A stretch of 64,000 bases of DNA, from the sequence record NC_048170.1. One strand, given 5' to 3'. The position numbers and the translations under genes are program-made. Position 1 is the first letter of the stretch; each line of letters starts with the position of its first letter. This DNA is from Escherichia phage vB_EcoM_Goslar. The notes below the pieces were generated by a model. That model was not told the DNA's origin and did no database searches. It worked only from the letters and a program-made list of their open reading frames with translations. Below, one piece after another: positions 7,311 to 63,303 of this stretch.

Positions 7311-7511
7311 TTAATAACCATCCAATTTCAATGAAGGATGGTTGACGATATGTGCGTGTTTTGCTGGGTCATATAGCTGATATGGAAAATAGCCATGCCA
7401 TTGACGGCCTTGGCATTTCGTACACAGGAACTGACCAACACCTTGTCGATTCTCGTAAGCGAGTTCGGTACTATCAACATGTCCGCAACGTTCGCAGATA
7501 AACAGCGACAT
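7311..7511 (-). CDS. small zinc-ribbon protein
   Basis: 66 aa with CxxC...CxxC (CERCGH...CTKCQG). Confidence 0.45.
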   Translation of the reverse strand: MSLFICERCGHVDSTELAYENRQGVGQFLCTKCQGRQWHGYFPYQLYDPAKHAHIVNHPSLKLDGY

Positions 7512-7548
7512 AGCGCATCCCCATTCACTTGAACCTTTTGGTTCGGCA

Positions 7549-8529
7549 TTAGAAAAGCAAGAAACCGCTATTCTTCGCTTCCGCTACAGTTTCGTCACCA
7601 ACTTTCGGTGCTTGTTGACGTGCGTTACGATGTTCGATGTAACGTTTCGCTTCGTCAGCGATTTGTTTGATAATACCCCCTAAACGATCGGTACTTAAAA
7701 CAAACGACGTCGCTTCACGAATCGGGCTGCTTTCAGGCACAAAACCATCACAGCTATAAATAGCGCTAACACCCATGACTTTTGTCGCGTCTTTCGGATA
7801 AAGCGTACAGAAAGCAATCGGGCTATCGTTCTCTTTCGTCCATTCGTATCCCATGAACGTATTCAGTTCGGTGATCGTCGGTTCCAAACCGGTAACACGT
7901 GGATGGTTTAAGAAGTTTTCCAGGTCGGCGCTGTCAAGACGACGGTTCTCGCCAGAAAACAGAACACAAAGCTGGCTAATAACAACCTGCACGTCCAGGT
8001 TGACATCCTGCTCCGATTTCCCATTTTCGCCATTCATGTGATAGCTAACAATCACTGGACGTTTCAACCCTTCTGCAGCCGCCATCAGTCCTTTGAAGGT
8101 GCGATCGGCGTTGATCGTCTGGCGCTCATCATCGAACGAGGCAACGATACAACACACCACACGTTCACCGCGTTCCAGCAGGTTAGCAACCAACGCAGGA
8201 CCGGCAACAGAACCTGAACCACCGCTCAAACTAAAGACCACGATATTAAATTTACCTGGCGTATGCTTATTGAGAATACCTGGGATTTGTGAACAGATCA
8301 GTTCAGCGTTCTCATCACGCTTCTTACCAGAACCGTCTAACTCACGACCAGCTGCATCTTTAAAGATGTAAATATGATCGTCGCCCAGTGTGCTATCGCG
8401 TAGGTTAGCGCGGCTGGTATCAACATACGTCATGCTGTGTAATCCTTTCGCGACTTCGCCTTCAAATGCTGAGCCGATTTCGCCACCACAACCACCGACA
8501 GCCCAAATATGTACTTGGTTCTCTTGCAT
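7549..8529 (-). CDS. phuZ: tubulin/FtsZ-like GTPase (PhuZ-like)
   Basis: N-terminal WAVGGCGGEIG and SLSGGSGSVAGP (tubulin signature GGGTGSG-like); RBS AGGAG before ATG at 8529. Confidence 0.7.
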   Translation of the reverse strand: MQENQVHIWAVGGCGGEIGSAFEGEVAKGLHSMTYVDTSRANLRDSTLGDDHIYIFKDAAGRELDGSGKKRDENAELICSQIPGILNKHTPGKFNIVVFSLSGGSGSVAGPALVANLLERGERVVCCIVASFDDERQTINADRTFKGLMAAAEGLKRPVIVSYHMNGENGKSEQDVNLDVQVVISQLCVLFSGENRRLDSADLENFLNHPRVTGLEPTITELNTFMGYEWTKENDSPIAFCTLYPKDATKVMGVSAIYSCDGFVPESSPIREATSFVLSTDRLGGIIKQIADEAKRYIEHRNARQQAPKVGDETVAEAKNSGFLLF

Positions 8530-14398: not shown

Positions 14399-15643
14399 AT
14401 GCTCATGTCTTCTATTTTACAGGTGTTTAATGCGCATGCGGAAGGCATTGACATCGACGAGTATTTTGTTAATCAGGTTATCCGTTACGCGACACGCTTC
14501 CGTACGCAAGACCAAGAACACATGCGTTTTTTCGGTGGGGTTCTGTTAGGTGTACAGAAAATCCGATTCACAACAAGACATAACGATACATGGTTTTCAG
14601 ACGTCTTGATGATGGATGAAGAAAGCTTACGACGCGATTTGAGTAAACTACCCTTCTACAATACGCAGACCAACCGTGTTGCCTCAAACGCCTTTAACCT
14701 AAGTTGCTGTTGGTTGCTTTATGCGATCTTCCACAGCAAACAAATCAAAAAAGAAAAGGTTCGTGAAGCCGGGATGCTTGCAGCAATGCAAGTCCTCCAT
14801 TATAAATTCATTTGCGGTCTGGTAGCACGACGTTATCCTTATAACGCTGATCCGGCTATCGCTATTAAAGCGTACGATGAGTTAACCCTCAAATCAGGCA
14901 TCAAGCGCATGAATAGCTGGAATGAGTACATCGACGAACGCTGTAATGCCATCATTGCGCGTAATAGTACACATTTCAGTCGTTGGTCAACCCTGGAACC
15001 TGATAGCGTCGCCGAACGTTTTGTGCGTGATGTGAATACCGGAATCCGTAAGGTTATCAACCGTATCACCGATACGTACTACGCGATGTACGAAGAAGGT
15101 AAGAAGATAGGCACGTCTTCTCAAACTGTAGAGTTAGACGATGGTCTCGCTGTCCGCGATATTAAACGCAACGAAACCACTTATCGTCAATATCTGTTCG
15201 AAATCGCTTATGACCGAACGAGTTTCGTTAAACGCGAACTCATGGTCGTCATCCTTGACGTACACCATACTACCAATCTTTTATCCCTTGAGCGAGCGTT
15301 AAGCTATATCAGCGCTAACGTAGAACGACCGACAAGAGACGGAAAACAGGTCTCTCAGATGTTGCGGCTTGTAATGGAGCATGCTATCGAGTATATCATC
15401 TTGAATAAGGTCGATATGCGCGATCTTACGTTCTTATTCTACATGCGTAACGTGTACACGTCTAACCGCACTAGCAACCCGAAACTGTTAGAACTGCGTA
15501 AAATTGGCTCTGAAGTCATTAAGAAAGCAACCAATGCGAGAAATGACGCTGAGGCTGCGGCGACACGCACCGGTGTCTTTCTGTATATCCTGCTTCGTGT
15601 GTTTAGCCGTAACTATTACGTTCGACGTGCGATGTCACGTTAA
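14399..15643 (+). CDS. hypothetical protein
   Basis: 414-aa ORF. Confidence 0.55.
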   Translation: MLMSSILQVFNAHAEGIDIDEYFVNQVIRYATRFRTQDQEHMRFFGGVLLGVQKIRFTTRHNDTWFSDVLMMDEESLRRDLSKLPFYNTQTNRVASNAFNLSCCWLLYAIFHSKQIKKEKVREAGMLAAMQVLHYKFICGLVARRYPYNADPAIAIKAYDELTLKSGIKRMNSWNEYIDERCNAIIARNSTHFSRWSTLEPDSVAERFVRDVNTGIRKVINRITDTYYAMYEEGKKIGTSSQTVELDDGLAVRDIKRNETTYRQYLFEIAYDRTSFVKRELMVVILDVHHTTNLLSLERALSYISANVERPTRDGKQVSQMLRLVMEHAIEYIILNKVDMRDLTFLFYMRNVYTSNRTSNPKLLELRKIGSEVIKKATNARNDAEAAATRTGVFLYILLRVFSRNYYVRRAMSR

Positions 15644-33916: not shown

Positions 33917-36900
33917 TTATTTGGCGTCGTTAAAATAAATATCAACAGCTCGTTCCGTTGCGTAGAGGAGACCAAGATTCACAGTCCCAACCACTTCCGG
34001 TGAACCGATGATACGGTTAGCGATACTGGTGCCACTGAAGATAGCATCAAGGGTGTGCCCGTCTTCGGTTTTGTTCACACCATGACCCACGGAAGAGACA
34101 ACGGATTTCGCTTGTGCTGCGAAGGTACCTTTATCACCCATCCCCGCACCAAGGTCGTAACGCATGAAAATACGGATGGCGATCTGGTTCTCGCCTAACG
34201 GATTACCGTCTATTCTTACGTTACTGTTGTTGATACGCCCCGTTGTTGCTTCGTTGAGTTTCAGTTCCTTAACGCGTTTAGCTCGTGCTTTATCCGCATC
34301 GCCGACGAGCGCTGCCATGGTTTCACTCATATCCTCAATCTGAGCGCGGTACAATACATCGATCTGTACAACTTCACCATGAACGTCAGCACGTGGGTTA
34401 TACTGACTCATACGCCGTAATGCTTCAACGGCTTCCTGACTCTCATCACTCAGATCGGTCGCAATCGGTTCTTCCAGTGTTGCAAGGATCGTTCGTGGTT
34501 CAACATGATCGCCGATTTTCACGAGACCACGAATGTTGAGATGGGCGTCAACGATGAGTGTACGACTCTTAATCGATGGTGTTACGAGACGATCGGCAAG
34601 ATTGTCGAAGATATACGAACTGTCCTCGTGCGTCTCTGGAATATCCAGAATACCGACAAGAGACAGAACACCTGCGCGCCAAACAACCTGACCTGGGTTC
34701 CACCAATCGCGTTTAAAATAAAGACGATGGAAAACCACCACATCCTGATCCTTAACGCGATCCCCGACTTTATAATCGGTAATGAGATCGTGAGGATAAT
34801 ACTTACCTGGTCCTTTCCCGATTATCGTGCCGAGTTGGAAAACCTCTTCTCCTAACTCTGGATCGTCGTATTGTATCGTAAGCGCAGTTTTGGTGACCTT
34901 CTTAACAACACCATCGCCTTGGGCAGCTGCTGCGAAGAGTTTACCAACACGATGCGCGATGACTGTCTCGCCACCCGTACGCCATGGTTGTACATCGTAA
35001 CCTTCAGCAGCAATCATGCGGTTGTGTTGGATTCCGACAAAAACCAGACGTTTTCCATCGTCACGGTCTACAGCCGGAACAGCTAACGCCGACGTACTCA
35101 TTACCGATGAGATACCATCTGTCTTTTCATCGAATGGTCGTGTTTCACCATACACCGACACGATATTAGCATTAGGTGCAAGGTAAGCAGAGATACCCAC
35201 ATCCCCACTATCTTTCGTACCCTCTGACACAATACCAACATCAGACTTGTCGTATTCACGATCGCGTGCGCGTCGAAGCGATGTCTTTGAACGACCTCCG
35301 ATACCGGTCATCGTTGCTTCTTCACCTTGCTTGATATCCAGCATTGGGTTGGTTTCATCAATGACGATAGAAGCACTGTCGTCAAGGATTTGGTTCCAAA
35401 CGCTCACCGGACTGATTGAGATCTTCTGTCGGTTGCCTTGGCTGCTGTTCTCATTCTGACGAATAGCGCCAACCAGGTCCTTATACACCAATTCAGCGAA
35501 CTTATCGTACGTTTTAAAACGTTGGTAGTTCACATCGTTCGTGTTAGGTGCCCAATCATCCAGAAGCAGTTCAACAGCACGCAGTAGCAACATGGCGAAA
35601 TCAGTAGGTTCTCCCATGTTCTGTAATAGCGTACGGCTTACCGGATCAACGAAAAGACGCTCCATGAGTTCAAGTTCGCGTAAATGGCGAACCTTAAGTC
35701 CAGCACCATCGACAACGTTAAAATAGATATCACGATTGTCAAAAGCGCCGCGAGCGTAACCGATGTAGTTACGGTACTCGTTAAACCCACCCAGCAACAA
35801 CGTCGTCATGCGATCGTCTTTACTGAAAATCAAACTTTCATCGTCAAAGCTCACCGCGAATTCATCTGCTGCTAACCCCATACGAGAACCACGAGGTACC
35901 GTACGATAGTTTGCTTTAAGATGTTCTAATAACGGGGTAAGTCCGCCCAGATAACTTAGAACAACGCCAACCGGAATACGTACACCCATGAATTCAAGAT
36001 CGGCGGCTTCGATCGGCATCTTAGCCGCATTGATACCGAAGAAATCAGGGAACGTCCCTACAGGTGTTGGTGTTTGTCCTGACTGACAGATATAGAGCTG
36101 ATTGCGTTCATCGATCGCTAGGAACTCACCCGATGTGTTACGTGCGAACGTCAGGAGTCCTTCGGCTAACTGTTCGTTGAACCGATCTTCCCCAATGAAC
36201 TCCGGCAATGTTTTTATATCGAGACGTATATCCCAATCAGCAAATTGGATTTGGGTATAGTTGCGTGCAAGCACAGCGAAGTAATACGGGACTTTGACAG
36301 CCGGATCAAAGACGTTACCACGTTTTAACGTTGTTAAGGGTGAGGACTTATCGTAATACATCGCCGTAAGTTGACGTGTTAGCCAACGACCGGCGTTATT
36401 AACGACGCGCTCTGAACGTTTAACAAACACCTTACCGTAGGCGGTACTTAATGCAACTTCGGATGATGATACCTTTCTAATAGGTTTATCAACACGTTGT
36501 TTACGCATCCGGTACTTGATGCCGTTAACAACATAAATGCCATCCTTACGAACCTTCGGCAACATCACCGGGAACGTGGTTGGGACACCGCCTACAGGGG
36601 CCAGTTTAATCGTGATGACTTGATAATCCCCCATCACGTCAACAACATCTTCGACTTTATATCCCGTAACAGGGTAACCTGCTTGCTGTACCGCAACAAC
36701 GGCAGCTGCGATGTCCTTTTGCATTACATGCTCAACGTAATGTTTATCCCACACCGCAAGCGTCGATTTACATAGGCTCTTATCGACGATAACATCCGCT
36801 TCCGGCATAACCTTTGCGGGAGCTAATTTTGCGGCTTTTGGTTTAACTTCAACATACTCGGCAAGCGTGAGTCCAGAACCGTCGGGCGCTTCGATTTCAT

Positions 36901-38263
36901 GAATAGCGTCGGCATTACGCATCGCTGCTTTATATTGGACGCCGCTTAACTGACCCGCATCCGCCAGATCGCTCGCGCGCACCAACACCGCATCCGATAA
37001 CGACTGAATATATTCACCGTGCGTTTTTGGTAACGTTGCCGCGTCAAAGACATCAACCTTTTCTTCTTCGGTATCGTCGGTAACGACTTCGAAGAGATCG
37101 TCGGTAATGTCCTGATCTTCATCGGGTTGGAAATCTGGTTGTACTTCTACCCCGGGTACTTCACGGACATCTTCGAACGCGCGTTCTACAATGGCGTTCC
37201 ACGCATCAGCGTCATCGTCTTCATCCGACCCACCGACCAACTCCGCTTCTAACTCGTCGGGGTCAAGAACAGTGGCCAGATCCTCCCCGTTAGGAAGCAT
37301 GACGTCACGATCATCGTACTCCGCATCCGGGCTGTCCGCAAGAATATCTCGCTCTTGACGAAGAACCTGTTCCTCTTCTTGTTTCTGTTCTTCTTCATTC
37401 GCACTCTGCGACCACAGACGTGTTACCGCCATCATCCAACGACGCTGGAAGGTTTCAAGTGTCGTTTTATCGAGTTCTTCCCCTTCCTTTACAAGTCCGG
37501 TACGCCATTCTTCCAGTAGACCAAGATTCAGCGTAAAGAAGTACACACCGTCTGTAAATACAACGTTAAGCTTATCCAGCGTGGCTCTGTCTAACGAAGC
37601 CATCGTGCTGTTCTCACGATCGACGCCCAGCCAGCGGAAGAAGTCAAAGAACGACAGCTCCTCCGGCGTGGCGAAATTCATGAGGTTGTTACGGGTCGGT
37701 GCCTGTTGCGTGGTACGCATCAACGAAATCTTCGGCAATGTTGACGGTATACGGAACAACAAAAAGTGTTGACGATCGCTTTGCTGTGCGATTTCGTTGG
37801 CTTTCGACCAAATTGTTTTACGCACGTTGAACCATTCATCATACCAACGGGTGAGCGTTGGACGATAGATGTACATGTGGTTAAGATGTGCGTAGTTAGC
37901 AACGATCTGAGCGTTGATGTTTTTCTCCACCGTACTTAGATCGGTAACCAAACGAAAACGACGATGCGATGCACGATAATCCAATTTCGCTCGTGGAAGT
38001 TGGAATCGTTGATCGCGTCGAGGTGCACCCTGTTTGGTTGCGAGATCATCAGCAAACGAAATCCATAGTTGAGCACTTTCTTTACTCAGCATGTATTCGT
38101 TTTCTGGAGGACCTATCAATGAAGGATCCGTTGCGGTGTAATGATAGACAGCATAACGCGGCAGCTGCAATAGCTGCACTAAACGTAATCTCGGTGACAA
38201 TAGCTCTTGGTAGCGTCTGACACCAAACTGTCGGTAGTAATCAAGGTATTTAAGTTTTGCCAT
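33917..38263 (-). CDS. multisubunit RNA polymerase beta-like subunit
   Basis: NPMLDIKQGEEATMTGIGGRSKTSLRRARD...SEGTKDSGDVGISAYLAPNANI resembles beta NPLSEITHKRR..GPGGLTRERAG..ETPEGPNIGLI; GDKGTF...GHGVNKTEDGHTLDAIFSGTSI resembles GDKMAGRHGNKGV block; RBS GGAG. Confidence 0.55.
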   Translation of the reverse strand: MAKLKYLDYYRQFGVRRYQELLSPRLRLVQLLQLPRYAVYHYTATDPSLIGPPENEYMLSKESAQLWISFADDLATKQGAPRRDQRFQLPRAKLDYRASHRRFRLVTDLSTVEKNINAQIVANYAHLNHMYIYRPTLTRWYDEWFNVRKTIWSKANEIAQQSDRQHFLLFRIPSTLPKISLMRTTQQAPTRNNLMNFATPEELSFFDFFRWLGVDRENSTMASLDRATLDKLNVVFTDGVYFFTLNLGLLEEWRTGLVKEGEELDKTTLETFQRRWMMAVTRLWSQSANEEEQKQEEEQVLRQERDILADSPDAEYDDRDVMLPNGEDLATVLDPDELEAELVGGSDEDDDADAWNAIVERAFEDVREVPGVEVQPDFQPDEDQDITDDLFEVVTDDTEEEKVDVFDAATLPKTHGEYIQSLSDAVLVRASDLADAGQLSGVQYKAAMRNADAIHEIEAPDGSGLTLAEYVEVKPKAAKLAPAKVMPEADVIVDKSLCKSTLAVWDKHYVEHVMQKDIAAAVVAVQQAGYPVTGYKVEDVVDVMGDYQVITIKLAPVGGVPTTFPVMLPKVRKDGIYVVNGIKYRMRKQRVDKPIRKVSSSEVALSTAYGKVFVKRSERVVNNAGRWLTRQLTAMYYDKSSPLTTLKRGNVFDPAVKVPYYFAVLARNYTQIQFADWDIRLDIKTLPEFIGEDRFNEQLAEGLLTFARNTSGEFLAIDERNQLYICQSGQTPTPVGTFPDFFGINAAKMPIEAADLEFMGVRIPVGVVLSYLGGLTPLLEHLKANYRTVPRGSRMGLAADEFAVSFDDESLIFSKDDRMTTLLLGGFNEYRNYIGYARGAFDNRDIYFNVVDGAGLKVRHLRELELMERLFVDPVSRTLLQNMGEPTDFAMLLLRAVELLLDDWAPNTNDVNYQRFKTYDKFAELVYKDLVGAIRQNENSSQGNRQKISISPVSVWNQILDDSASIVIDETNPMLDIKQGEEATMTGIGGRSKTSLRRARDREYDKSDVGIVSEGTKDSGDVGISAYLAPNANIVSVYGETRPFDEKTDGISSVMSTSALAVPAVDRDDGKRLVFVGIQHNRMIAAEGYDVQPWRTGGETVIAHRVGKLFAAAAQGDGVVKKVTKTALTIQYDDPELGEEVFQLGTIIGKGPGKYYPHDLITDYKVGDRVKDQDVVVFHRLYFKRDWWNPGQVVWRAGVLSLVGILDIPETHEDSSYIFDNLADRLVTPSIKSRTLIVDAHLNIRGLVKIGDHVEPRTILATLEEPIATDLSDESQEAVEALRRMSQYNPRADVHGEVVQIDVLYRAQIEDMSETMAALVGDADKARAKRVKELKLNEATTGRINNSNVRIDGNPLGENQIAIRIFMRYDLGAGMGDKGTFAAQAKSVVSSVGHGVNKTEDGHTLDAIFSGTSIANRIIGSPEVVGTVNLGLLYATERAVDIYFNDAK

Positions 38264-38930: not shown

Positions 38931-40403
38931 CTATTTATTCAAGTATCTGAAATCCCACTTATCCTTACGTCTATTATCGCACTTGATGTCAGGATGTCTA
39001 ACACGGTGTTGAATCGTAGTCGCTGGTAATTGACTCACATTCACAGCCGATTTCGCGCCAAGAACAATTGTTTTTGTGTTGTCCGGACGAGTAACTTCTA
39101 CCGCTCGATGATGTTTACGTAACACATCACGCCAATACTCACGCCGTTCCGGTTCCGCGTATTCGAGCATATAACCGTTGGTATCGACCAGACCGTAACT
39201 CTCGTTTAAACGAGAGGTGGCGGCTGGTCTACTAATACCAATCGCTTTAGCCGCGTCAACCACGGTTTTATACGGGGTCTCATTACCGTCTCTATCTACA
39301 ACCACAATAAAATCTGGACGCGAATCGAGCAGCTGCTGTCTTCGTTCAAGGGCTTGTTGATGAAGCACCTTATTAACATGTTCGAACCCGTAACCTTCTG
39401 GACCGTGCCACCCTGGATTGTTATTCGCTCGATAAAGTATCGTCGCAGATTTCACTCCCGTCTGACGTGACGCCTCGTTCGCACTATGGACAACCGTGGT
39501 AGTGCCATCAGGGTGATATATCCGTATCTGGTTCATTATACCAGAACCAACGAAATTACCATCAGCTGATTTAATGTCCGGCCAGGGTTGTGGATCATCT
39601 TTGAATTTAACCACCCAACGGTTGTTAAACAATTTGACTTTCCGAGCATGTTTACCTAATGTCGTGTCTGTAACACCGGCTACAGCAGAGGCTTGCGCGA
39701 TACTAGGATATTCCGTGACCACATCTTCTTCAGTATCCCAAAGGAGAACCGGTTTGTTATCATCACGTAGTCCGGTCTCAACCGCATGTAGAATATTTCT
39801 AAGGCGGGTTGCCCATTCTAGATTGTCTAACGCGTAATTCCACTTATCGCCATCAAGATGGTTAACGTCCATCCTATCGACATCAGCCGGATAATCTTTC
39901 CACGCTAAGAGCAGACAGCGATGAAGCGATCTTCTCTGGGATTTAAATCGGCAATCATGCTGCATACTAACGAAAACATAGCTATCGTCAACACACCAGT
40001 GAGGACACTGACGGCCAGTAATACGGTTGATGATTCTACCTTTCCGGTTGGCCAAATAACGAGTGTGTCCGGGAATGACACGATAACCTGGGTACTTAGC
40101 GATTTCGTAAGCAGGCTCGAACCGATAGGATAAATTATCAACATCCCAGTTAGATTCGTCACCATCAACAAACATCGCTTTGACGTATTTCTGTGTTTCA
40201 ATATCAACCAGGATGTTTTTGTGTGCGATACAAATCAATGCTGGGATATTGAATTCGCGACCGGCTATGATAACCGTGTCGCCATTTCTCGGTACCTCGA
40301 CGTGGGTATCGCGATACCGTAAGTTTCCATAGCCGTCTATTTCAATCCAGCTTAAAAACGGAATGGGTATAAACTCTTTTTCAGATACTCGCCATTTAAA
40401 CAT
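38931..40403 (-). CDS. HNH homing endonuclease (intron-encoded)
   Basis: HNH motif VNHLDGDKWNYALDNLEWATRLRN; C-terminal repeated DNA-binding-like modules (SIAQASAVAGVTDTTLGKHARK, TVVDAAKAIGISRPAATSRL). Confidence 0.8.
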   Translation of the reverse strand: MFKWRVSEKEFIPIPFLSWIEIDGYGNLRYRDTHVEVPRNGDTVIIAGREFNIPALICIAHKNILVDIETQKYVKAMFVDGDESNWDVDNLSYRFEPAYEIAKYPGYRVIPGHTRYLANRKGRIINRITGRQCPHWCVDDSYVFVSMQHDCRFKSQRRSLHRCLLLAWKDYPADVDRMDVNHLDGDKWNYALDNLEWATRLRNILHAVETGLRDDNKPVLLWDTEEDVVTEYPSIAQASAVAGVTDTTLGKHARKVKLFNNRWVVKFKDDPQPWPDIKSADGNFVGSGIMNQIRIYHPDGTTTVVHSANEASRQTGVKSATILYRANNNPGWHGPEGYGFEHVNKVLHQQALERRQQLLDSRPDFIVVVDRDGNETPYKTVVDAAKAIGISRPAATSRLNESYGLVDTNGYMLEYAEPERREYWRDVLRKHHRAVEVTRPDNTKTIVLGAKSAVNVSQLPATTIQHRVRHPDIKCDNRRKDKWDFRYLNK

Positions 40404-40440: not shown

Positions 40441-40490
40441 TTTAAAAGTTAAATTTGCCAGAAAACTGGCATTTTGTTAGCCTTTCCTTG

Positions 40491-41957
40491 ATCACCGCCA
40501 AGTCCGGCGAGGTATGGCGCAGGGACAATAGTAGTTTCTACGAACGAGGCATTAGGTAACCAGTCGGGGTATTCCCACGCAATAAATCGCTCATCCGTTA
40601 TTGGTTCCCAGTTACTATCAAGTTCAGTTTTCGGTTTTGCTGCAACGGTCGTACGCGCGTAACAGGTTAACGGAATGACGGATTGCATACCCGATACCGG
40701 ATAACGTGTTACCATTGCAGCCAGGTTATTCCAGTATTTATATCCTGCGATATACACTAATTCGGTATACGTGATAGGGTGAACATCTGCACCAGGTTTG
40801 TTAAGCATCTCCGGAGGTAATTCACTCATACCACGGAATAACCGAAACGAATCATTGTTCACATAGACAAGACAAAGATATCGTCCATTAACCATGATAG
40901 GTTCGTTACGCACACCCGGATCGCTTAAGGTGTTCAGTAAGCGTTCTATTCCGTCCCAGGTTGTAAAGTCATCGATGGTGTCTGGATCAAGCGTGACGCG
41001 TTCACGTTCCATCGTTTCGGTATCAATAAGTTCAACTTCTGTAACATCACGGACAAATATTTCCTGCAAAATCCCCGTACGTAATGCATGTTGCGTTACA
41101 GGGAGAGCAGCTTTACTCATCTGGTATAACCCTAACTGAACCGCGGTACAGGAAGGCTGGTTAGGCGACCCTAGTACCTCCGTTGTGGGGTTAATTGCTG
41201 AAATAACGTTACGGGTTGAGTTCCAAACGCGACGTGAACCAAACTTACCTTGGAAGATCCCTTTCTTACCTTGGAACATATCCAACAACAAAGCGTAGAT
41301 ATCGTTAAATGTTCTCTGTAAGCTCCAGCGCTGGCCGTCGTAAACGGGATCAGAATAATCTTTTAATCCATCGGGGACGGTGTTAGAAATTGCAAGGAAA
41401 CGACGATACAACTCTGTAATCTCTTGCTCGCTTTCATACCCGCCTTCTTTTACTTCTATTTCACGTAAGCCTGCAGGCAATACCAGTAAGTGACGGGTCA
41501 TCGCTTTGAACATGTTCTCTTCGACAACTTTAATTCGTAGCTCTCGTTGAGCTGAGCCCGTTGAAACGAACTTGATATCCGCGACGTGTTGTGCAAAGAA
41601 CCCGTATCCTGTTTGTCCTGTTAACGCATCAGACGCAACGAAGTCGCGTTGTTCAGGATCCCAACGAGCGTACGCCTTCCCCGACATGATATCACCATAG
41701 AGGTGTTTTAGTCGAATGAGGCGGTCGTAAATGACAGGGTGCAGGATTTCAACTTTACATTCAATCACCGCAAATCGACGGTCTCGATCTTCACTACCCG
41801 CACTACCAAAGATGGTGTAAGAATAGAAACCATCATCGTGGAAATTACCGGTGCTTGGGTCACGAATGCTCATGCTCGTGATCTTGGGGAGAAAACGTAA
41901 CTGCTGTTTATCGAGGTGTAAAATGCTAATGTTAAACGGCTCTCTGACTTTAGCCAT
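40491..41957 (-). CDS. RNAP beta-prime-like subunit (N-terminal fragment), exon 1
   Basis: RBS GAGGAG before ATG at 41957; blocks LLVLPAGLREIEV, KKGIFQGKFGSRRVWNSTRNVISAINP, RYPVSGMQSVIP align with [41 protein letters not shown]; ORF-track tail past 40491 is intron read-through. Confidence 0.6.
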
Positions 41958-42202
41958 GGAGACACTCCTCTTTACCACCACCGGCTGCGGCGGTATCATC
42001 TGAACACACGAGAGACGTAATGGGTGATGGCGTCACCCATCGCTTCCTTGCTTGAGGCGAGGAAGTTATTAGGTTACGTACCTGCGTGATAAAATCAAGC
42101 AGGCGATGTGTGAAGTTACGCTTCAACATTATCAATGCCGAAGGTAAACTTCGTGCATCACGTTCCAACGTAACATGGGAACGTATCGAACTGGAGGTAT
42201 AC

Positions 42203-55449: not shown

Positions 55450-56124
55450 TTAGCCCTCATCAAGGTTATTCTGGAGATGCATCGCGGTGAGGATAACGCC
55501 AACCGCCGAAACCGATTTTGCCTTGCTGTCTTCAGGGAGCTGCTCCAAGCTTACGGTACCTGTTTCTAACAGCATGCGGTTCATCGCGTTGAACTTCTTA
55601 TCGTCACCACCACGAGCCTGCATCAGTTCTCGGTTCACGTTCGGCATCGAGCGTCCTAACGTTGCTTGCATTTCCGGCTGACTCCAAGTGGAACCTTTAC
55701 TATCACCCGTCGGCTGATTGGTGAGCTGGTCCTTGGTGTTGTTGTTTTTCGGAATCGATATTTTAGCACTCAACGTTTCGGCTTGTCGGCGGTTTGGAAT
55801 CAAGTACAATCTGGTTGGACGGTCACGAAGCACCAGTTGTCCTGTTTTCTGGTCGGTGAGGTAAATACGCTGGAAGAAAGGGAAACCGTATTTCTTACCG
55901 ACTTCCAACGCACGTTTTATCGTCACCTCGTTTTTGTTCATGTTGGGTACCCAGATGGGTAGAATCTCTTTCTTATCCCGACATAAACGCATATAGGCAT
56001 CAAACGTCTCATCATCGATTTCAGCAAAACGTTTTTTGTAAATAGCGTAAGTCGGGCTCGATTCACCCACCAGGTCTTTGATATACCCAAGAATGAATTT
56101 TTCTGCTGCAGCGCGGTTGGACAT
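55450..56124 (-). CDS. hypothetical protein
   Basis: 224-aa ORF. Confidence 0.5.
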   Translation of the reverse strand: MSNRAAAEKFILGYIKDLVGESSPTYAIYKKRFAEIDDETFDAYMRLCRDKKEILPIWVPNMNKNEVTIKRALEVGKKYGFPFFQRIYLTDQKTGQLVLRDRPTRLYLIPNRRQAETLSAKISIPKNNNTKDQLTNQPTGDSKGSTWSQPEMQATLGRSMPNVNRELMQARGGDDKKFNAMNRMLLETGTVSLEQLPEDSKAKSVSAVGVILTAMHLQNNLDEG

Positions 56125-56133
56125 AAACGTCTC

Positions 56134-56475
56134 CTATTGTCGTGTCTGTTGCGGAAATACCCGAAACACCTGGACAATGATGTTCTTGTCCTCGCGGTTG
56201 GCGATGTCGATCATGTGTTTTGTTCCAGGACTTTTGAAATCCCAGAACGCAATTAAATGCGTAATGACATCGCCCATCCACTCATTGCGTCTGAATCCAG
56301 CACCTTTACGATAAGGGCCATCCCAATCGGCAGGAAACGTGGTGTATTTAAACCCGTAATCCTTCGCATAGCGGCGCACGTGCAAATCAGCACCTGAACG
56401 CGCACCGCCAGCAATGAGATGAACTTTGTCGTGAGGGAGGTTATGTAACATCTGGTTCATACGCTTTTCGAACAA
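56134..56475 (-). CDS. SLOG-fold / DUF2493-like protein
   Basis: LIAGGARSGADL...FPADWDG...GAGFRRNEWM...IAFWDFKSPGTKHMI. Confidence 0.55.
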   Translation of the reverse strand: MFEKRMNQMLHNLPHDKVHLIAGGARSGADLHVRRYAKDYGFKYTTFPADWDGPYRKGAGFRRNEWMGDVITHLIAFWDFKSPGTKHMIDIANREDKNIIVQVFRVFPQQTRQ

Positions 56476-56528
56476 GGGATAATCATCCCAGTAGCGTGAT
56501 CCTGATACCCCTACACGATAGGGTTCGC

Positions 56529-56849
56529 TTATCTTCCACCGCGCAATGACTTTACGTTGCGTGCGATAAAGGGTGCAACGTAATCACGGAAATTATGGAT
56601 CCATCCTTTAATGGGTTGGTTGTCTAGTAAGCACTCACGTACCGAAAACGTACTTACTTCTAATACGCCGAACTGTAGTCGCCAATAGCGATTGATTTCA
56701 GCTTGGGTATGTTCTAATGTCATGTACTCAGGAACACGAGCCAATAGGTCGTGTTTAAATTGCTCAGCAATCGCTGGTTGATGTGACGCAATTGTCTGCG
56801 TGATAACATCAATCAGTTCATGCGCATGCTTGATAGCAGGTGCGGTCAT
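56529..56849 (-). CDS. hypothetical protein
   Basis: 106-aa ORF. Confidence 0.45.
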   Translation of the reverse strand: MTAPAIKHAHELIDVITQTIASHQPAIAEQFKHDLLARVPEYMTLEHTQAEINRYWRLQFGVLEVSTFSVRECLLDNQPIKGWIHNFRDYVAPFIARNVKSLRGGR

Positions 56850-56861
56850 TTATTTAGCCTT

Positions 56862-58352
56862 TTATTTTTTACTCGGACGATTCAATGCGGGTACCGGGTT
56901 CTTTGGTTGCTTTGTCTTTTCATCCATCCAGTACGGGAAGTACTCACCGGTACGCATACGCAATAAGTCCATTGTGGACAGGAACGGCAGTGGGTTAGGA
57001 TCGTCCAAATACGTCCAGTAACCACGCGTGTTTAACAATACATCCCAATCGAAACCTTTTGCTTTAAGATCGTCGTACAGTTCCTGTGGGGTGCAATACA
57101 GCTGTGGGTTTTCGTAAACCTCTTGACGCCAGAGATTATGCATCTGACACAGCTCCGACGTGATTTCCAGAGCACGCTGTAAATACTCATCCTCTTCGCA
57201 AAGAGAACGAATGGTCGTACGCTGCAACGCAACATCCGGATAAATATCCAAATATACCGTTGAAGCACCATCAGCTGATTTACCACCTGACGCATGCATA
57301 CCCCAACCACGCATCCAATCTTTATCGCGCAGGTAGTGGTATTCCGTTAATGATGGTTTAACCCCTTCGCTCTGACTAACCACAATCGGGAACGGTAAGC
57401 CGGTGGGTCCGTTTTTAGCACGCATGTTGAAGACTTGAATCAACTGCAGATCGGTATCCCCGATAAGGTTGTCACCAGGCCCACGCGGATAAAGGACGCG
57501 TTTATCGGCGTTCTGAAGAATCGTCAGTTTATCGATTTTCCAGAGGTTATTCGTATAAAACGTGAAGCGTTCCGGGACGTTCTTAAACTTCTCATCGCCC
57601 TTAAACCCTTTCAGTTTTCGTACCGGCTGCTGTCCAGGCATACCACCGACGTTTACACCATCACCAAGGTGGGCAGTCATGGTAATGTAGATACCCGCCG
57701 ACGCTGTGAGTACTGGCATCTGTGATAAAATCTGGCTTTTCGCTGCTGCGGAACGCATCGCTTCAGCATTCAGTTTTGCACCACCAGCGGTTTCTTTATC
57801 GAACAATGCATCAACAGCATCGATTGGTAACCCAGAGAAACTGTCGATGAGTACAACGGTCGGCAACCACCAGGTATAGTTCTCACCGTGTTTATTAATA
57901 AACGGAACGGCTTTGCGTTGAGATTTATCTTTGACCTTGTCGTCACGGAATTTCTTAATCGCATCAAACCAAATGTTACCGCTCATCTGAACAGCATCGG
58001 TGATAAACACACGTTCTTCTTCGAAAAGATCGACACCTGCGATATTAGACATGTTCATCGCAAGCGTTAAGATACGTGTTGTCGTTAACGACATTTCTGT
58101 GTCGTAAACGCTACTATTGCTGTTTGCGTAACGATCGATAACGCGTAACAAGCGAAACATTATGAACGTGGTTTTGTTCATGTTGCCGCGAGCGCCTGCG
58201 CCCTCAACAAGCATCATGCCGCCATTACAAATGCTTTCACCGTGTTTACCGACATAGTACCGACCACCAGATGTGGGAATATCCATTAAGCAACCAATGT
58301 TGAGATTAAAACGCATCTCTTCACCAGGAGAAAGGTACTTATTAAGATTCAT
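56862..58352 (-). CDS. RecA-fold ATPase, possibly UvsX/RecA-like recombinase
   Basis: VEGAGARGNMNKTTF (P-loop-like), VVLIDSFSGL (Walker B-like). Confidence 0.4.
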   Translation of the reverse strand: MNLNKYLSPGEEMRFNLNIGCLMDIPTSGGRYYVGKHGESICNGGMMLVEGAGARGNMNKTTFIMFRLLRVIDRYANSNSSVYDTEMSLTTTRILTLAMNMSNIAGVDLFEEERVFITDAVQMSGNIWFDAIKKFRDDKVKDKSQRKAVPFINKHGENYTWWLPTVVLIDSFSGLPIDAVDALFDKETAGGAKLNAEAMRSAAAKSQILSQMPVLTASAGIYITMTAHLGDGVNVGGMPGQQPVRKLKGFKGDEKFKNVPERFTFYTNNLWKIDKLTILQNADKRVLYPRGPGDNLIGDTDLQLIQVFNMRAKNGPTGLPFPIVVSQSEGVKPSLTEYHYLRDKDWMRGWGMHASGGKSADGASTVYLDIYPDVALQRTTIRSLCEEDEYLQRALEITSELCQMHNLWRQEVYENPQLYCTPQELYDDLKAKGFDWDVLLNTRGYWTYLDDPNPLPFLSTMDLLRMRTGEYFPYWMDEKTKQPKNPVPALNRPSKK

Positions 58353-58450
58353 TGGGTAAAGACTCCTTCGATTCTTCGACTAATTCTTAGTGTTCAGAGA
58401 ATAACTATTTTTAGTTAAGACTGACAACCGCTATTTCCACGAGGACAATC

Positions 58451-59293
58451 ATGCATAAATTTACCATTCCTGAAGACCCGATTACACTGCAGACCCTTTG
58501 GGATTCACATCGTGCTTTATCAATGGAAGGCTTTGCGCAAGACTTCGCTTCACTTACCGCAGTAACGAACCTTCGTAGTATGTTTACTAACGGTAAGAAG
58601 TTCGTTACCGATTGGCTTAAGAAACGTGATGTGACGGTTTATCCTAAAGTCTTCGATGACCTCGATACCATCTTTAGCAACAACGCTTACAGCGATCTCA
58701 TTGGGTATCGCGCTTTTATTCCGAATGGTTTAAATGCGCCGATGTCAGATTATGTTGTCGCTTTAACCCAGAGTCTGGATAGCGTAATTGGCACCATCCT
58801 ACCCGATTTGGATAAGTTGACCGTAACGTGCGCTAAAGCCGTCAACGACGTTAACTTCCGTCGTAGTAGTGGTATGGCTCAAACACTACCTAAAAACGAT
58901 CCAGAGAACGTTCTAGAGACGTTACGTGCGATGTTCAAACAAGGGACGGTAACACAGACCACTGTAGGCCGTGCATATAAGAACGAAGATGATATTCGTC
59001 AGATCGGAAAAGATCTGGATGCTTCCCGTATCCGTGCGCTTGACGTTAATCCTAAAGACGTGAAGAAGGCAATCGAACGTTTCATGGAGGTAGCTGACCG
59101 TTTAACCGAAATCCTGGTTCAAGACTACAACGAAGGTGCGGTGAGTAACGCAATGATTCGCGATATTAGCGACGCTATCTACCAAACAGCCAAACAGGCT
59201 GAGCTGTATGCGTTTCTCGTGAACGCTTTGGCTGAGGCGATCATCGCATATAACGACACTTGGGACGCTGTTAAAAAGAACGCGAAAAAATAA
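58451..59293 (+). CDS. hypothetical protein
   Basis: 280-aa ORF. Confidence 0.5.
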   Translation: MHKFTIPEDPITLQTLWDSHRALSMEGFAQDFASLTAVTNLRSMFTNGKKFVTDWLKKRDVTVYPKVFDDLDTIFSNNAYSDLIGYRAFIPNGLNAPMSDYVVALTQSLDSVIGTILPDLDKLTVTCAKAVNDVNFRRSSGMAQTLPKNDPENVLETLRAMFKQGTVTQTTVGRAYKNEDDIRQIGKDLDASRIRALDVNPKDVKKAIERFMEVADRLTEILVQDYNEGAVSNAMIRDISDAIYQTAKQAELYAFLVNALAEAIIAYNDTWDAVKKNAKK

Positions 59294-59301
59294 CATAATA
59301 A

Positions 59302-59337
59302 CCCACCCTACTACCCCGTTAAGGGCGGTAGGGTGGG
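59302..59337. terminator. bidirectional terminator hairpin
   Basis: cccaccctac...gtagggtggg between convergent genes, followed by TTTATTTGCCGTAT. Confidence 0.5.
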
Positions 59338-59344
59338 ATAAGGT

Positions 59345-59776
59345 TTATTTGCCGTATAGTTGTACCACTCGTTGTGTCGTAGGAACGCAGACTCTTACCA
59401 GAAGCTTCTTAATCTCCTGACGAATCGTTGCTTTATCATCATAATAAAGCCATGGCGGAACGCGTTGCATTATGCACTGCACGGCTTCATCGTAGTTCGT
59501 CGTCTCATTAAGTAACGTCTCACTATCCAGATCTTTCCATGCAGTAATACCAAGTCGCGCAGCAAACATCAACGCTGAAACCGACTCAGCTATCTCCAAT
59601 CGCTCATTCATATCCGCAAGACCTTTTAGCATGATGTAATTATCATCATGCTGATGTAAGGTGCCATACAAACTTCCGAAGAGAAGTATACGTTTAGCTT
59701 TTGCGGTTAAGAGGAACGACAGGAGAGCGTGTTTCAACGGTTGTTTCTCACGTTCTACCTGTTCGACCATCACCAT
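59345..59776 (-). CDS. hypothetical protein
   Basis: 143-aa ORF. Confidence 0.5.
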   Translation of the reverse strand: MVMVEQVEREKQPLKHALLSFLLTAKAKRILLFGSLYGTLHQHDDNYIMLKGLADMNERLEIAESVSALMFAARLGITAWKDLDSETLLNETTNYDEAVQCIMQRVPPWLYYDDKATIRQEIKKLLVRVCVPTTQRVVQLYGK

Positions 59777-59779
59777 TGA

Positions 59780-61318
59780 TTACTCCAACACATAACGTGG
59801 GTTACTGTATATGTTAGCCCATATACCAACGTCGTCTCCTGATTCGATAATCACAGCGAAACGAAACGCAACATCAGATTCACGATAAGTTACCGCGTAC
59901 GCTTTCGTTTCTGGCGATGCTAAATAGCTCAAGTTCAGACGTTGAGGTAGGTCTAACCCCAAGGACATGGTACAAGACGTAACGCCCTGCTTATCGGGGG
60001 TCAGTCTGTAATTCACGTCCACCTTCAAGCTTTTCGTAACCTGCGTAATCGCACTATGCACTTTGGTAACCGTTTTGCCTTTCTTATCCTTTTCTGTTTC
60101 GAAAAGAACGTCGGTAATTTCGGTTACAACCAGGCGCGGTGTGGATTCGCGGTTAGCATCCAGCCATTCATCCAGCAACGTCTTTAAGAAGTTCAAGGAA
60201 TCAATCGCGCGCCAAGCAAGGTTAGGTGGATTGCACGCTTCCATTAGAATGGCTGTGTTGGATCCACCTAGCGGAAGATGCACGCTCTTACCGAGGCCCG
60301 TCGGACGCATCGTAAGATCGCACTCGCCCTCAAGAATATCGCGATGATACTGACGATGATGAAGGTTATCCGTGTATGCGATATACACTGACTCCGTTGT
60401 CCCATGCTCTAATACCCGAGATGCATGCGTACGCATAATCTCAACAGCATCATCCGGCTTGCTTAAATAGATAACACTGTACGCACTATCGCTAATCCTT
60501 TTCCCTAACTCAAGACGTCCCTTGTTGTCTTTATCAGTGTTACCACCGAAATAGATGTAGCGGCCATCTTTCGCACGCTCTTGCTGCTGGTTGGTGGTAA
60601 AGTAGCAGCGTGAGAACGTAAAGAACGGGCTTATTTCCGGTTCGGGGCTCCAATACCCCTTAGCCGGAAGTTCGCGGCGTATTTGGGTTCTTACAGCCCA
60701 GTCCTGGTTTTGTGACAGATATGTTCCACGCGTTGCCAGCATATCCGCACGTTCGTTACCAACATTGCCCTCATGTCCAGGAACGTAGCGCAGCGAAATA
60801 TCGATAGCGTCGCGCTTCGCATCCCTTATCGCGCTATCGAGTTTCCGCCACCGTTCCGCATTCATTAACGGTTTATTGTCGGATTTAACCCAGTTGTTCT
60901 CTCGCCAGTTAGCAAGATGGTTGGTGGCACCTACAACAACATATTGGCTGTCCGACAACAGCTGGATCCGTTTTGCCCCCTTTGCTTTTCCAAGTTCAAT
61001 CGCACGTATTGCAGCATCCAACTCAGCCTGATTGTTCGTTACGTTGAAACCCAAAGCCTCTAACTCATCCACGTATTCCTTGGGTTCGACCAGCACAGCG
61101 TCTTTAGGAAAGTCGAGTTTAGGGTCAACATAACCGTATTGCGTTGGTTTGGGCTTCCCACTTTTTGAGGGTTCCAAGGTGCCTTTTATTTCTTTCACCA
61201 TATCGTAGGTGTAGCCGTGCACGCCGTAGCCACCATACCCACTCGATGTTGGACGGGATCCTCCATCACAGTAGAAAACGGCACCGAGCTCAGTATTTCC
61301 TGCCATTGTAAACCTCAT
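59780..61318 (-). CDS. RNase H-domain protein with C-terminal extension
   Basis: N-terminal FYCDGGS...NNQAELDAAIRAIE...LLSDSQYVV...NW...GHEGNVGNERADMLA matches RNase HI catalytic blocks. Confidence 0.7.
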   Translation of the reverse strand: MRFTMAGNTELGAVFYCDGGSRPTSSGYGGYGVHGYTYDMVKEIKGTLEPSKSGKPKPTQYGYVDPKLDFPKDAVLVEPKEYVDELEALGFNVTNNQAELDAAIRAIELGKAKGAKRIQLLSDSQYVVVGATNHLANWRENNWVKSDNKPLMNAERWRKLDSAIRDAKRDAIDISLRYVPGHEGNVGNERADMLATRGTYLSQNQDWAVRTQIRRELPAKGYWSPEPEISPFFTFSRCYFTTNQQQERAKDGRYIYFGGNTDKDNKGRLELGKRISDSAYSVIYLSKPDDAVEIMRTHASRVLEHGTTESVYIAYTDNLHHRQYHRDILEGECDLTMRPTGLGKSVHLPLGGSNTAILMEACNPPNLAWRAIDSLNFLKTLLDEWLDANRESTPRLVVTEITDVLFETEKDKKGKTVTKVHSAITQVTKSLKVDVNYRLTPDKQGVTSCTMSLGLDLPQRLNLSYLASPETKAYAVTYRESDVAFRFAVIIESGDDVGIWANIYSNPRYVLE

Positions 61319-61356: not shown

Positions 61357-61908
61357 TTACCGATTACCGTCGGTTGACGTTGGTTGATCGCGATCGACTT
61401 TCATTGACCGCAGTTTTCCGCCGTTAATTACACATTGATTGCGCTGTTTGGCGGAGGTCAGACTATTACAGACGTAATAGGTATCGATAAAACGTTCAAC
61501 GCGTTCTTGAAACTCCCTCTCGTCAACTTTCTCTTTTTCAAAAGTTCGTAACGCCCGATCAACCTCACCCTGGAGAATCCGGTTCTGTTCAACCATACTG
61601 TCGATTAAACGGCCTCGTACTTCGTTCGATGTGTAAAGTTGACGAATCAGTTCTCGGTTGGTGTCTCGCGCATAACGCAATGTTGCATTTTCCTGACGTA
61701 AACTACTCACGTCAGCCATCAAGGTAATGATTTTTTCGCCAGCGAATAACGTCACGATACCCAATACGATGAAAAAGCCCGTAATCAAGAATATCGAGGA
61801 CTGTCGAGCTCCATCTCGACGATAGCGTGTGGGCGGTCGCTTACTTCGCCGAAACAACTCGCGAAGAAAAGGGAAAAGCCAGGGCAACGCCTTGAGTGTA
61901 GTAAACAT
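61357..61908 (-). CDS. membrane protein with N-terminal TM helix and coiled coil (spanin-like topology)
   Basis: start MFTTLKAL with RBS AAGGA; hydrophobic SSIFLITGFFIVLGIVTLFAG then heptad-like charged region. Confidence 0.35.
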   Translation of the reverse strand: MFTTLKALPWLFPFLRELFRRSKRPPTRYRRDGARQSSIFLITGFFIVLGIVTLFAGEKIITLMADVSSLRQENATLRYARDTNRELIRQLYTSNEVRGRLIDSMVEQNRILQGEVDRALRTFEKEKVDEREFQERVERFIDTYYVCNSLTSAKQRNQCVINGGKLRSMKVDRDQPTSTDGNR

Positions 61909-61962
61909 GCGTGTGTCCTTGATAGTATGAAATTTCCAATACAACTTAACCGAGGACGTCGA

Positions 61963-63303
61963 ATGATTAGTATTTTTGGTTTTTATACGTACAAAGGGTA
62001 CGCTAATAACCACCCAAAAACCACGGCGAAATTCGGTGAGTTCAGTCAGCACAGTGCTACGTTCAGTCGCGAAATCGGCATCTATACCAACACGGCGTAC
62101 GCACGTACGACCTTATTAGTGTTGAATGCCGAAAACGAAGCTGGTGAAGCACAAACGCTGAATGACGACACCGCAGGCCGCATTCTTCAGGTTGGTCAAT
62201 GGTTGCTGGAAAAAGCCGCATCGGGCGAAATCCAGGAAGACCGAGACCAAGTTATCGATTACCTAAAAGACGACTTCACAACGTATCTGGATTCTATCGA
62301 CATCCCAACACCCACCACCGATGGCACAGTCTATCTACCAGCGTGGATCAGTTTCAAGATAACGGCCACCGGCGATGTTGTCAAGATTTGGTTGTCTGAT
62401 AGCGTATTCCAAAGTCAATATCCAAAATACGAATATGAAGTCGTTCCCCCTGTTCCTAAGGATCAGTTAGATACCTTCTTCGAAGATCTGGCAACATTGA
62501 AGAAACTGGTTGACAGTCGAAGCAGCGAGAAACTGACCGAAGAAATCAACGAGGTGCGCGACCAATTCCCAGACACACAATTGTGGACGAAAACCTATAA
62601 AGCGTACGATTACACCGACGATTCGAAATACATTAATACCGATTGGACGGTGATTATCTACGGTGCAGCAGGTAACAACATTGATAATATCAAGGAGTTC
62701 CTGCAAAACTGGATTCTTAGCAATAGCACGCACGGACGTCCAGACTGGGAAATCGTTCTGCCGGATCTTTTTATTCCGACGGAACACATCTTCATCCCGA
62801 TCTGGAACCGCCACAGTGCTCCAGAAATGACCAATCAGGCACGTATTTATAGTCCTATCTTCGATGATTCGTTGATGGATACCTACCTGAAAAACTTTGC
62901 TGATGGTTACGGCGAAACCGCCGAAGTCCGTAAGTCGCTTCAAGCGGTGCCGACGTTGTGGCGCTCGATCGGTTTCTTAAGTGTCGGTAACTCACGTAAC
63001 CGAGACGGTAAACTTAAGTTCTACGATCGTTGGCCACAATACGCGCTCATCAGCACAACCAGCATCGACATTAACCGTATCGACGATGCGACACGTGAAT
63101 TCATCACGTTCACTTACGAAATGCTGAAACTGGCAGAATCGCTCACCGAAGACGACCCGGTACCGTTGGGTTATAGTCGTGTTACGCGTGGTAGCAATAG
63201 CTTCTTAGCGAAAAGCCACAACGATGTTCAGTATCTCTTCTTAACAAAAGAAGCGTTCCTGAAGAAAATGCCGGATGAAGCCGACACGCCTGTTGGAGGT
63301 TGA
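61963..63303 (+). CDS. hypothetical protein
   Basis: start MISIFGFY with RBS GAGGA. Confidence 0.5.
   Translation: MISIFGFYTYKGYANNHPKTTAKFGEFSQHSATFSREIGIYTNTAYARTTLLVLNAENEAGEAQTLNDDTAGRILQVGQWLLEKAASGEIQEDRDQVIDYLKDDFTTYLDSIDIPTPTTDGTVYLPAWISFKITATGDVVKIWLSDSVFQSQYPKYEYEVVPPVPKDQLDTFFEDLATLKKLVDSRSSEKLTEEINEVRDQFPDTQLWTKTYKAYDYTDDSKYINTDWTVIIYGAAGNNIDNIKEFLQNWILSNSTHGRPDWEIVLPDLFIPTEHIFIPIWNRHSAPEMTNQARIYSPIFDDSLMDTYLKNFADGYGETAEVRKSLQAVPTLWRSIGFLSVGNSRNRDGKLKFYDRWPQYALISTTSIDINRIDDATREFITFTYEMLKLAESLTEDDPVPLGYSRVTRGSNSFLAKSHNDVQYLFLTKEAFLKKMPDEADTPVGG

Follow-up and report, generated by a model that had tools for sequence, protein, structure and literature searches.

The closest described systems to the locus considered here are those of the jumbo phages phiKZ and Goslar, in which a protein joining a ribonuclease (RNase) H domain to a clamp-like domain was given the name Rhc (RNase H–clamp) in two 2026 preprints (PMC13648687, PMC13648698). 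In phiKZ this protein, gp155 (= Nlp2), has been shown by antisense knock-down to be essential for genome amplification and for maturation of the phage nucleus; it has genuine RNase H activity in vitro, and its catalytically dead D102N mutant complements fully (PMC12571901). The C-terminal domain of Rhc is distantly related to the PCNA and 9-1-1 clamps, and the Rhc monomer binds both the thumb of DNAP-C and the emerging duplex, strongly boosting the split B-family polymerase gp82+gp50, an effect which is abolished in the interface mutant M346E/F478A/I479D (PMC13648687). In phiKZ as well as in Goslar, Rhc binds directly to DNAP-C. In the latter phage, the RNase H activity of Rhc contributes partially to replication, and Rhc also supports late transcription, independently of replication and probably via R-loop removal (PMC13648698). 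Import into the phage nucleus is a further property of Rhc known from experiment (PMC12571901, PMC13648687, PMC13648698). The present work deals with a 64-kb stretch of DNA (the window, meaning always this full stretch) and centres on its positions 56134–61318, genes being on the minus strand unless marked as plus. In all likelihood, this region corresponds to phiKZ gp149–gp157 and belongs to an uncultured jumbo phage of about 229 kb, phiKZ-like (Chimalliviridae-type) but divergent, the RNase H fusion being Rhc, the 496-amino acid (aa) protein a RecA/UvsX-type recombinase, and the SLOG-superfamily gene an accessory one.

A first-pass annotation had placed three minus-strand open reading frames (ORFs) in this region, for a SLOG-fold, a RecA-fold and an RNase H fusion protein; all three are found at those positions in the ORF list and profile searches back each of the fold calls, RNase H and RecA-fold included. 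Together with the polymerase subunit encoded elsewhere in the window, the principal features are the following.

59780–61306, minus: Rhc, orthologue of phiKZ gp155 and Goslar gp190 (PHROG 3265 and BLASTP to gp155)
60692–61306, minus: N-terminal RNase HI domain of Rhc, residues ~5–209 in the 512-aa numbering, its first β-hairpin being followed by an insertion of about 50 aa
59783–60691, minus: C-terminal sliding-clamp-derived domain of Rhc, residues 210–512
1007–3160, minus: DNAP-C, C-terminal subunit of the split B-family DNA polymerase, orthologue of phiKZ gp50 (PHROG 2927, E=3e-206; BLASTP 33% identity over 728 columns, E=1e-138)
56862–58352, minus: RecA/UvsX-like recombinase, 496 aa, orthologue of phiKZ gp152 and 201phi2-1 gp237 (PHROG 97)
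56134–56532, minus: SLOG-superfamily protein of the YAcAr family, Pfam PF10686 (listed ORF 56134–56475, 113 aa, beginning with TTG)

The 512-aa frame does encode an RNase HI domain at its N-terminus (Pfam RNase_H, E=2e-25, residues 91–198, with all five active-site residues) followed by a C-terminal domain of about 300 aa, as had been proposed. Residues D18, E99, D123, H182 and D192 align with D10, E48, D70, H124 and D134 of E. coli RNase HI, D123 being the equivalent of phiKZ D102, and the E. coli and human RNase H1 structures in the PDB are matched at E=1e-15 to 2e-16. Moreover, the homology to the phage family is collinear and covers the full length of the protein, both in PHROG 3265 'ribonuclease' (E=3e-103, residues 10–508) and in the BLASTP alignment with phiKZ gp155 (26% identity, residues 12–505 vs 4–476, E=1e-47). 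The open frame reaches ATG 61318 (512 aa), although translation probably begins at the second ATG, 61306 (508 aa), since GAGG lies 6 nucleotides (nt) upstream of it and the database gene call is also of 508 aa. Only phiKZ-like jumbo phages (203 records) are matched over the full length, other phages matching the RNase H part alone, so that the fusion is indeed unusual in its restricted distribution; it is nevertheless a recognised hallmark of the chimalliviruses, recently explained and already known as the Rhc protein.

The C-terminal part, previously described as a domain of unknown function, is now identified as a sliding-clamp-derived fold. Residues 205–512 were modelled with a predicted local distance difference test score (pLDDT) of 86.6 and a predicted template modelling score (pTM) of 0.86, and, in a search of predicted viral structures, the domain was superposed on other chimallivirus 'ribonuclease H' proteins with template modelling (TM) scores of 0.69–0.84. 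The two-domain architecture (an RNase HI domain with its full catalytic set, joined to some 300 aa of clamp-derived domain), the genomic position and the DNAP-C partner, whose motif C SDTDST is conserved, are common to the window protein, phiKZ gp155 and Goslar gp190, the last being also of the same length, 508 aa. Clamp-fold processivity factors are likewise found in herpesviruses, namely UL42 of herpes simplex virus 1 (HSV-1), which acts as a monomer, and UL44 of cytomegalovirus (CMV). No sequence similarity links them to Rhc, which additionally has an RNase H domain and, unlike UL42 and UL44, binds its polymerase only transiently (PMC13648687).

By analogy with the characterised orthologues, the essential role of the window protein would be to serve the split DNA polymerase as an accessory or processivity subunit, and not primer removal as such. 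The clamp domain would bind newly made duplex and boost polymerisation, and the flexibly tethered and catalytically intact RNase HI domain would strip RNA from template RNA:DNA hybrids, either R-loops or primers. Polymerase binding, processivity and R-loop removal are here attributed from the literature on these orthologues; the folds, the catalytic motifs, the orthology, the synteny and the presence of DNAP-C were observed directly. Of the two activities that had been suggested for the fusion at the outset, primer removal or R-loop resolution, the latter is plausible as a secondary one, as proposed for Goslar (PMC13648698), the essential role presumably being that of polymerase subunit, given the complementation by phiKZ D102N.

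The 496-aa protein has the RecA core fold, matches PHROG 97 'UvsX-like recombinase' at E=2e-32, and is 38–39% identical to phiKZ gp152 and 201phi2-1 gp237 by BLASTP. The Walker A Lys-Ser/Thr pair (K60/T61), the catalytic Glu (E86) and the Walker B Asp (D170) are all present: K60, D84, E86, D170, S171 and S173 are invariant in 50/50 homologues, and residue 61, T in this protein, is S or T in all of them. The LIDSFSGL stretch, first taken for a Walker B-like motif, proved to be the Walker B strand because of the invariance of D170, S171 and S173 in the 50 homologues and of the profile alignment to T4 UvsX, in which the P-loop and the YDTE stretch are paired with GPSKSFKS and YDSE. Sequence searches against the PDB were weak or empty, T4 UvsX being reached by the recombinase profile at E=0.56 only and single-sequence phmmer returning nothing for either the recombinase or the SLOG protein, and the RecA assignment was settled by a fold search. 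In the model, two low-confidence loops (residues 180–191 and ~232–253) lie on either side of the helix that follows Walker B, at the places expected for the DNA-binding loops L1 and L2.

The function can be proposed from family knowledge only: the protein most likely acts as an ATP-dependent RecA/UvsX-type recombinase that would support recombination-dependent replication and the repair of phage DNA. Its homologues in phiKZ and PhiPA3 are imported into the phage nucleus (PMC11087766). Compared with E. coli RecA and T4 UvsX, and with phiKZ gp152 and 201phi2-1 gp237, the window protein has about 200 residues outside the RecA-aligned core, and the Pfam RecA and Rad51 models are blind to it. These additional residues include, above all, a highly conserved helical C-terminal region (~380–496), which probably lies outside the RecA-aligned core and in which W436, R443, W446, S459, D462, Y471 and W475 are invariant.

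The genomic context points to the same phages. The order and strands of the genes are identical to those of phiKZ gp147–gp157 and 201phi2-1 gp231–gp243, and the succession gp157, gp156, Rhc, gp154, gp153 (on the opposite strand) and gp152 is kept. In pairwise BLASTP, gp149, gp152, gp154, gp155 and gp157 were supported, and gp147, gp150 and gp153 more weakly. Besides the three genes initially proposed, the 5-kb region carries two small conserved minus-strand genes and one plus-strand virion-protein gene of 280 aa, and further counterparts of the phiKZ genes lie at its borders.

55450–56124, minus: virion RNA polymerase subunit, orthologue of phiKZ gp149 (PHROG 3233, E=1e-65; BLASTP 39% identity to gp149, E=4e-46)
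56529–56849, minus: gp150-like small protein, 106 aa (PHROG 6181, E=5e-7; BLASTP to 201phi2-1 gp234, E=0.002; position as in relatives)
58451–59293, plus: gp153-like protein (PHROG 4682, E=3e-24; weak BLASTP to 201phi2-1 gp238, E=5e-4; position and strand as in relatives)
59345–59776, minus: gp154-like small protein, 143 aa (PHROG 9853, E=2e-18; BLASTP to 201phi2-1 gp239, E=7e-8, and to phiKZ gp154, E=1e-6)
61963–63303, plus: gp157-like virion structural protein, block boundary (PHROG 3293, E=7e-129; BLASTP 32% identity to phiKZ gp157, E=9e-74)

The phiKZ and 201phi2-1 counterparts of the gp153-like protein are virion structural proteins, and the gp154-like gene, located 3 nt downstream of the Rhc gene, occupies the equivalent position in phiKZ, 201phi2-1, Serratia phage Moabite and two of the relatives' loci compared at the SLOG slot, L006 (SHAO19-1 scaffold_11) and L012. 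The idea of a dedicated cluster of nucleic-acid-metabolism genes does not hold: the block is syntenic with phiKZ gp147–gp157, with genes for virion proteins and the virion RNA polymerase interleaved, and what had been seen as a cluster is conserved synteny, without being one functional module, into which the SLOG gene has been inserted as an accessory. Elsewhere, the window encodes virion RNA polymerase subunits, a tail sheath, a terminase and a 717-aa DNA polymerase subunit; as chimallivirus hallmarks, the split DNAP-C and pieces of the multi-subunit virion RNA polymerase thus accompany Rhc and gp152, a gene set from which the formation of a phage nucleus may be predicted.

The SLOG call for the 113-aa protein was borne out by Pfam PF10686 YAcAr (formerly DUF2493), which it matches at E=2e-8 with 34.3 bits, the cut-off being 28.2. 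It has the residues of all 14 columns found invariant in an alignment of 34 sequences (GSR, GGA·GAD, FPADWD, AG··RN and GT), and the protein belongs to this family by both its residues and its score. The nearest solved relatives of the 34-sequence profile are the Rossmann domains of DprA, matched weakly (E=0.005–0.03) and over β1–α1–β2 only; the protein is not a DprA family member, as it gives no match to the DprA Pfam model PF02481 (DNA_processg_A). Homologues are spread over 459 phage records, which span unrelated groups (N4-like, Bacillus and Streptomyces phages). The gene is found in the identical slot in Moabite and in several metagenomic relatives, L012 among them, and no SLOG counterpart exists in this block in phiKZ and 201phi2-1. 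In phiKZ (locus L003) the slot is filled by gp151 (7325–7675), with a Pfam match to DUF488-N3a at E=2e-9, which implies that the slot beside the recombinase holds different small accessory domains among the chimalliviruses. Orthology of the SLOG protein with phiKZ gp150 or gp151 was considered and rejected: BLASTP reveals no similarity, gp150 corresponds to the neighbouring 106-aa ORF, and gp151 belongs to DUF488-N3a. The SLOG protein, the product of an accessory gene in a variable slot, most likely binds nucleotide or single-stranded DNA (ssDNA), much as the related DprA fold does, a ligand suggested by family knowledge.

Although the current understanding of the Rhc and gp152 proteins is left unchanged by this locus, the SLOG gene provides the sole new lead, as it lacks a start codon. 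Its coding sequence very likely extends upstream to about 56532, 19 codons beyond the listed TTG, up to an ATA at 56532–56530. The frame is open for 26 codons upstream of this TTG and encodes …ISEPYRVGVSGSRYWDDYP…, the first β-strand of the fold (…AGSR), with the family-invariant G11 and R13 in the extension. Inclusion of the extension lifts the Pfam YAcAr score from 34.3 to 52.4 bits and widens the coverage of the 66-position profile from 18–64 to 2–64. Furthermore, between the window and L006 (~66% nt identity), the 18 codons from the upstream stop to the TTG comprise 6 identical, 6 synonymous and 6 non-synonymous ones, a pattern like that of the gene body (38/31/31), the two other frames having 0 and 3 synonymous changes. 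The extension contains zero ATG, GTG or TTG codons, and in the L006 clade no table-11 start codon exists anywhere in the open frame. At the expected start position, the codon is TTG in L011, ATA in the window and GTA in the clade of L006, L010 and L014, both ATA and GTA overlapping the upstream stop codon. The stretch concerned is 56476–56557 in the window and 14765–14850 in L006. This lineage differs from the YAcAr family in having its first β-strand without a canonical start codon.

The 3' end of the gp150-like gene overlaps the open SLOG frame, which is −1 relative to it, and one further feature precedes the SLOG frame.

56550–56557, minus: conserved ACGTAAAG motif, a candidate −1 slip site (read as GTA AAG by the gp150-like frame), with a conserved CGCGGTGG after it (56536–56543)

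The ACGTAAAG motif is identical in three lineages sharing 58–66% nucleotide identity. In L011 the upstream gene ends right after GTA AAG and CGCGGTGG then lies past the stop, yet both CGCGGTGG and the −1-frame peptide RK·I·RW are conserved. As evidence for a −1 slip site, the conservation of the two elements is suggestive only. In all lineages a G·U-rich hairpin could form 5–6 nt downstream of GTA AAG, but its z of only −0.4 to −1.7 is not statistically notable. An assembly error as the origin of the missing start was rejected because eight independent assemblies share the junction; a search for further independent lineages of this junction in IMG/VR and a metagenome collection returned only 98%-identical copies of this same phage and one distant partial match. 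The N-terminus may result from a −1 frameshift fusion, from termination-coupled non-canonical initiation, or the product may start at an internal ATG and lack β1. Gene callers truncate the gene from an internal ATG (105–125 aa) in the source contig of the window and in L010, L011 and L014, and in L006 the intact gene (14790–15164) was missed, an opposite-strand ORF of 60 aa being called instead. A recoding event could lie behind the missing start codon.

For the RNase H fusion, an alternative to the polymerase subunit is a free-standing enzyme of primer removal or R-loop resolution, with a C-terminal domain that merely targets nucleic acid. The intact RNase HI active site and the in vitro activity of phiKZ gp155 (PMC12571901) would suit such an enzyme, as would the retention of RNase H1 by all group-1 jumbo phages, which have no identifiable primase (PMC7824862), and the effect of Goslar Rhc on late transcription, separate from replication (PMC13648698). 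It is nevertheless very improbable, since the catalytically dead phiKZ mutant rescues replication fully (PMC12571901), the clamp domain boosts the polymerase in vitro in a manner abolished by the interface mutant (PMC13648687), and both the clamp fold and the DNAP-C partner are found here. The phiKZ interface residues M346, F478 and I479, which are replaced by L367, P507 and R508 in the window protein, the first alone being conservatively retained, speak for the free-standing enzyme and against the identification of the region as a chimallivirus replication locus; in the homologues, these columns are mostly L, then L/I/P, then R, so that the phiKZ residues appear to be clade-specific. Several other points also weigh against this identification of the region. 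The clamp domain has a near-neutral bulk charge (isoelectric point 6.4 vs 8.5 in phiKZ) and is not net basic, although bulk charge is an uninformative stand-in for a DNA-binding surface; the characterised proteins are distant, with identities of 26% for phiKZ Rhc and 38% for gp152; and neither DNAP-N nor the DnaB-like helicase was found within the 64-kb window, nor was chimallin, sought by tblastn with phiKZ gp54 within the same 64 of ~229 kb. In the recombinase, the P-loop departs from its homologues at Ala54 (Gly in 48/50) and Asn59 (Phe in 37/50), and no Pfam family, RecA and Rad51 included, is matched at E≤0.1. Finally, no biochemical function has been reported in the literature for any YAcAr protein. 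The assignment to the gp149–gp157 block of a phiKZ-like phage is upheld by the collinear homology and the shared gene order, and the divergence of the lineage is itself useful: with proteins 26–45% identical to those of cultured phages, it extends the Rhc and gp152 families and separates the family-wide features of Rhc (RNase HI catalytic set, clamp fold, gp154 adjacency) from clade-specific ones (phiKZ polymerase-interface residues, net charge of the clamp).

The role of the SLOG gene in this block can also be read in other ways. The three genes might form one recombination module, in which the SLOG protein, as a DprA-like mediator, would load the UvsX-like recombinase in place of a missing UvsY, and Rhc would clear RNA:DNA hybrids for recombination-dependent replication. 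The gp150-like, SLOG and UvsX-like genes are in fact adjacent here, in Moabite and in L006, L010, L011, L012 and L014, among solved structures the SLOG profile comes closest to DprA proteins, Iyer et al. have suggested DprA/SLOG proteins as possible ssDNA-binding substitutes for UvsY in group 1–2 jumbo phages (PMC7824862), and DUF2493 is fused to a Dda-like helicase in HelB of ICP1 (bioRxiv 10.1101/671271). Such a module is unlikely, however: the SLOG gene is absent from the block in phiKZ and 201phi2-1, phiKZ having a DUF488-N3a protein there and a DprA-like protein, gp207, elsewhere; the homologues are scattered over 459 records of unrelated phages; virion genes interrupt the block; and the protein falls below the Pfam DprA model. 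A more specific version, in which a gp150-like::SLOG fusion made by a −1 frameshift at GTA AAG (or by termination-coupled initiation at a non-start codon) would serve as a DprA-like mediator with the adjacent UvsX-like recombinase, is similarly speculative. Slightly less doubtful is a counter-defence factor binding or processing second messengers derived from nicotinamide adenine dinucleotide (NAD+) or from nucleotides, unrelated to the neighbouring DNA enzymes. YAcAr is listed by Iyer et al. among the NAD+- or nucleotide-utilising domains, with predicted ligands of this kind, and among the conflict genes of jumbo phages (PMC7824862); the patchy, accessory distribution over unrelated phages and the variable slot, whose alternative occupant is another small domain, are in keeping with it. 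Against this stand the lack of any fused or adjacent sensor or effector partner, the recurrence of the place beside the recombinase in several lineages and, again, the silence of the literature on YAcAr function. An accessory nucleotide- or ssDNA-binding protein in a variable slot remains the preferred description of the SLOG gene product.

As regards the origin of the block, a megablast comparison of the 5.4-kb region with 50,697 phage records returned no match, so that the phage is not close to anything deposited there. The best protein matches, in which the RNase H fusion is about 31% and the recombinase about 45% identical, belong to jumbo phages of the phiKZ-like type that infect Xanthomonas, Proteus, Erwinia, Pseudomonas and Serratia. 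An identical RNase H protein is encoded on a 228,861-bp sewage-type metagenome scaffold (ENA ERZ28616984, MUNK18-1 scaffold_10), and the SLOG region is 98% identical on contigs of 183–249 kb from at least seven further metagenome or metagenome-assembled genome (MAG) assemblies (L015, L016 and L018–L022), including GenBank JACXXQ010000003.1. The phage species is therefore environmentally widespread though uncultured, being present in at least eight metagenome assemblies.

A scan for sigma-70 promoters and intrinsic terminators revealed no excess over shuffled sequence (10 vs 10.5 and 10 vs 7.6, respectively). Next to Rhc, the listed ORFs 61357–62052 (minus) and 61927–63303 (plus) overlap head to head, and the source gene calls are shorter, 61357–61908 (183 aa) and 61963–63303 (446 aa). 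The 183-aa protein, at the gp156 position, has no detectable similarity to phiKZ gp156 and resembles a membrane-anchored coiled-coil protein. Farther away, a 490-aa HNH endonuclease ORF (38931–40403, minus; PHROG 59, E=2e-26) lies between virion RNA polymerase β-type genes at 33917–38263 and 40449–41999, and may be a free-standing or intron-associated homing endonuclease, as described in other chimallivirus RNA polymerase genes.

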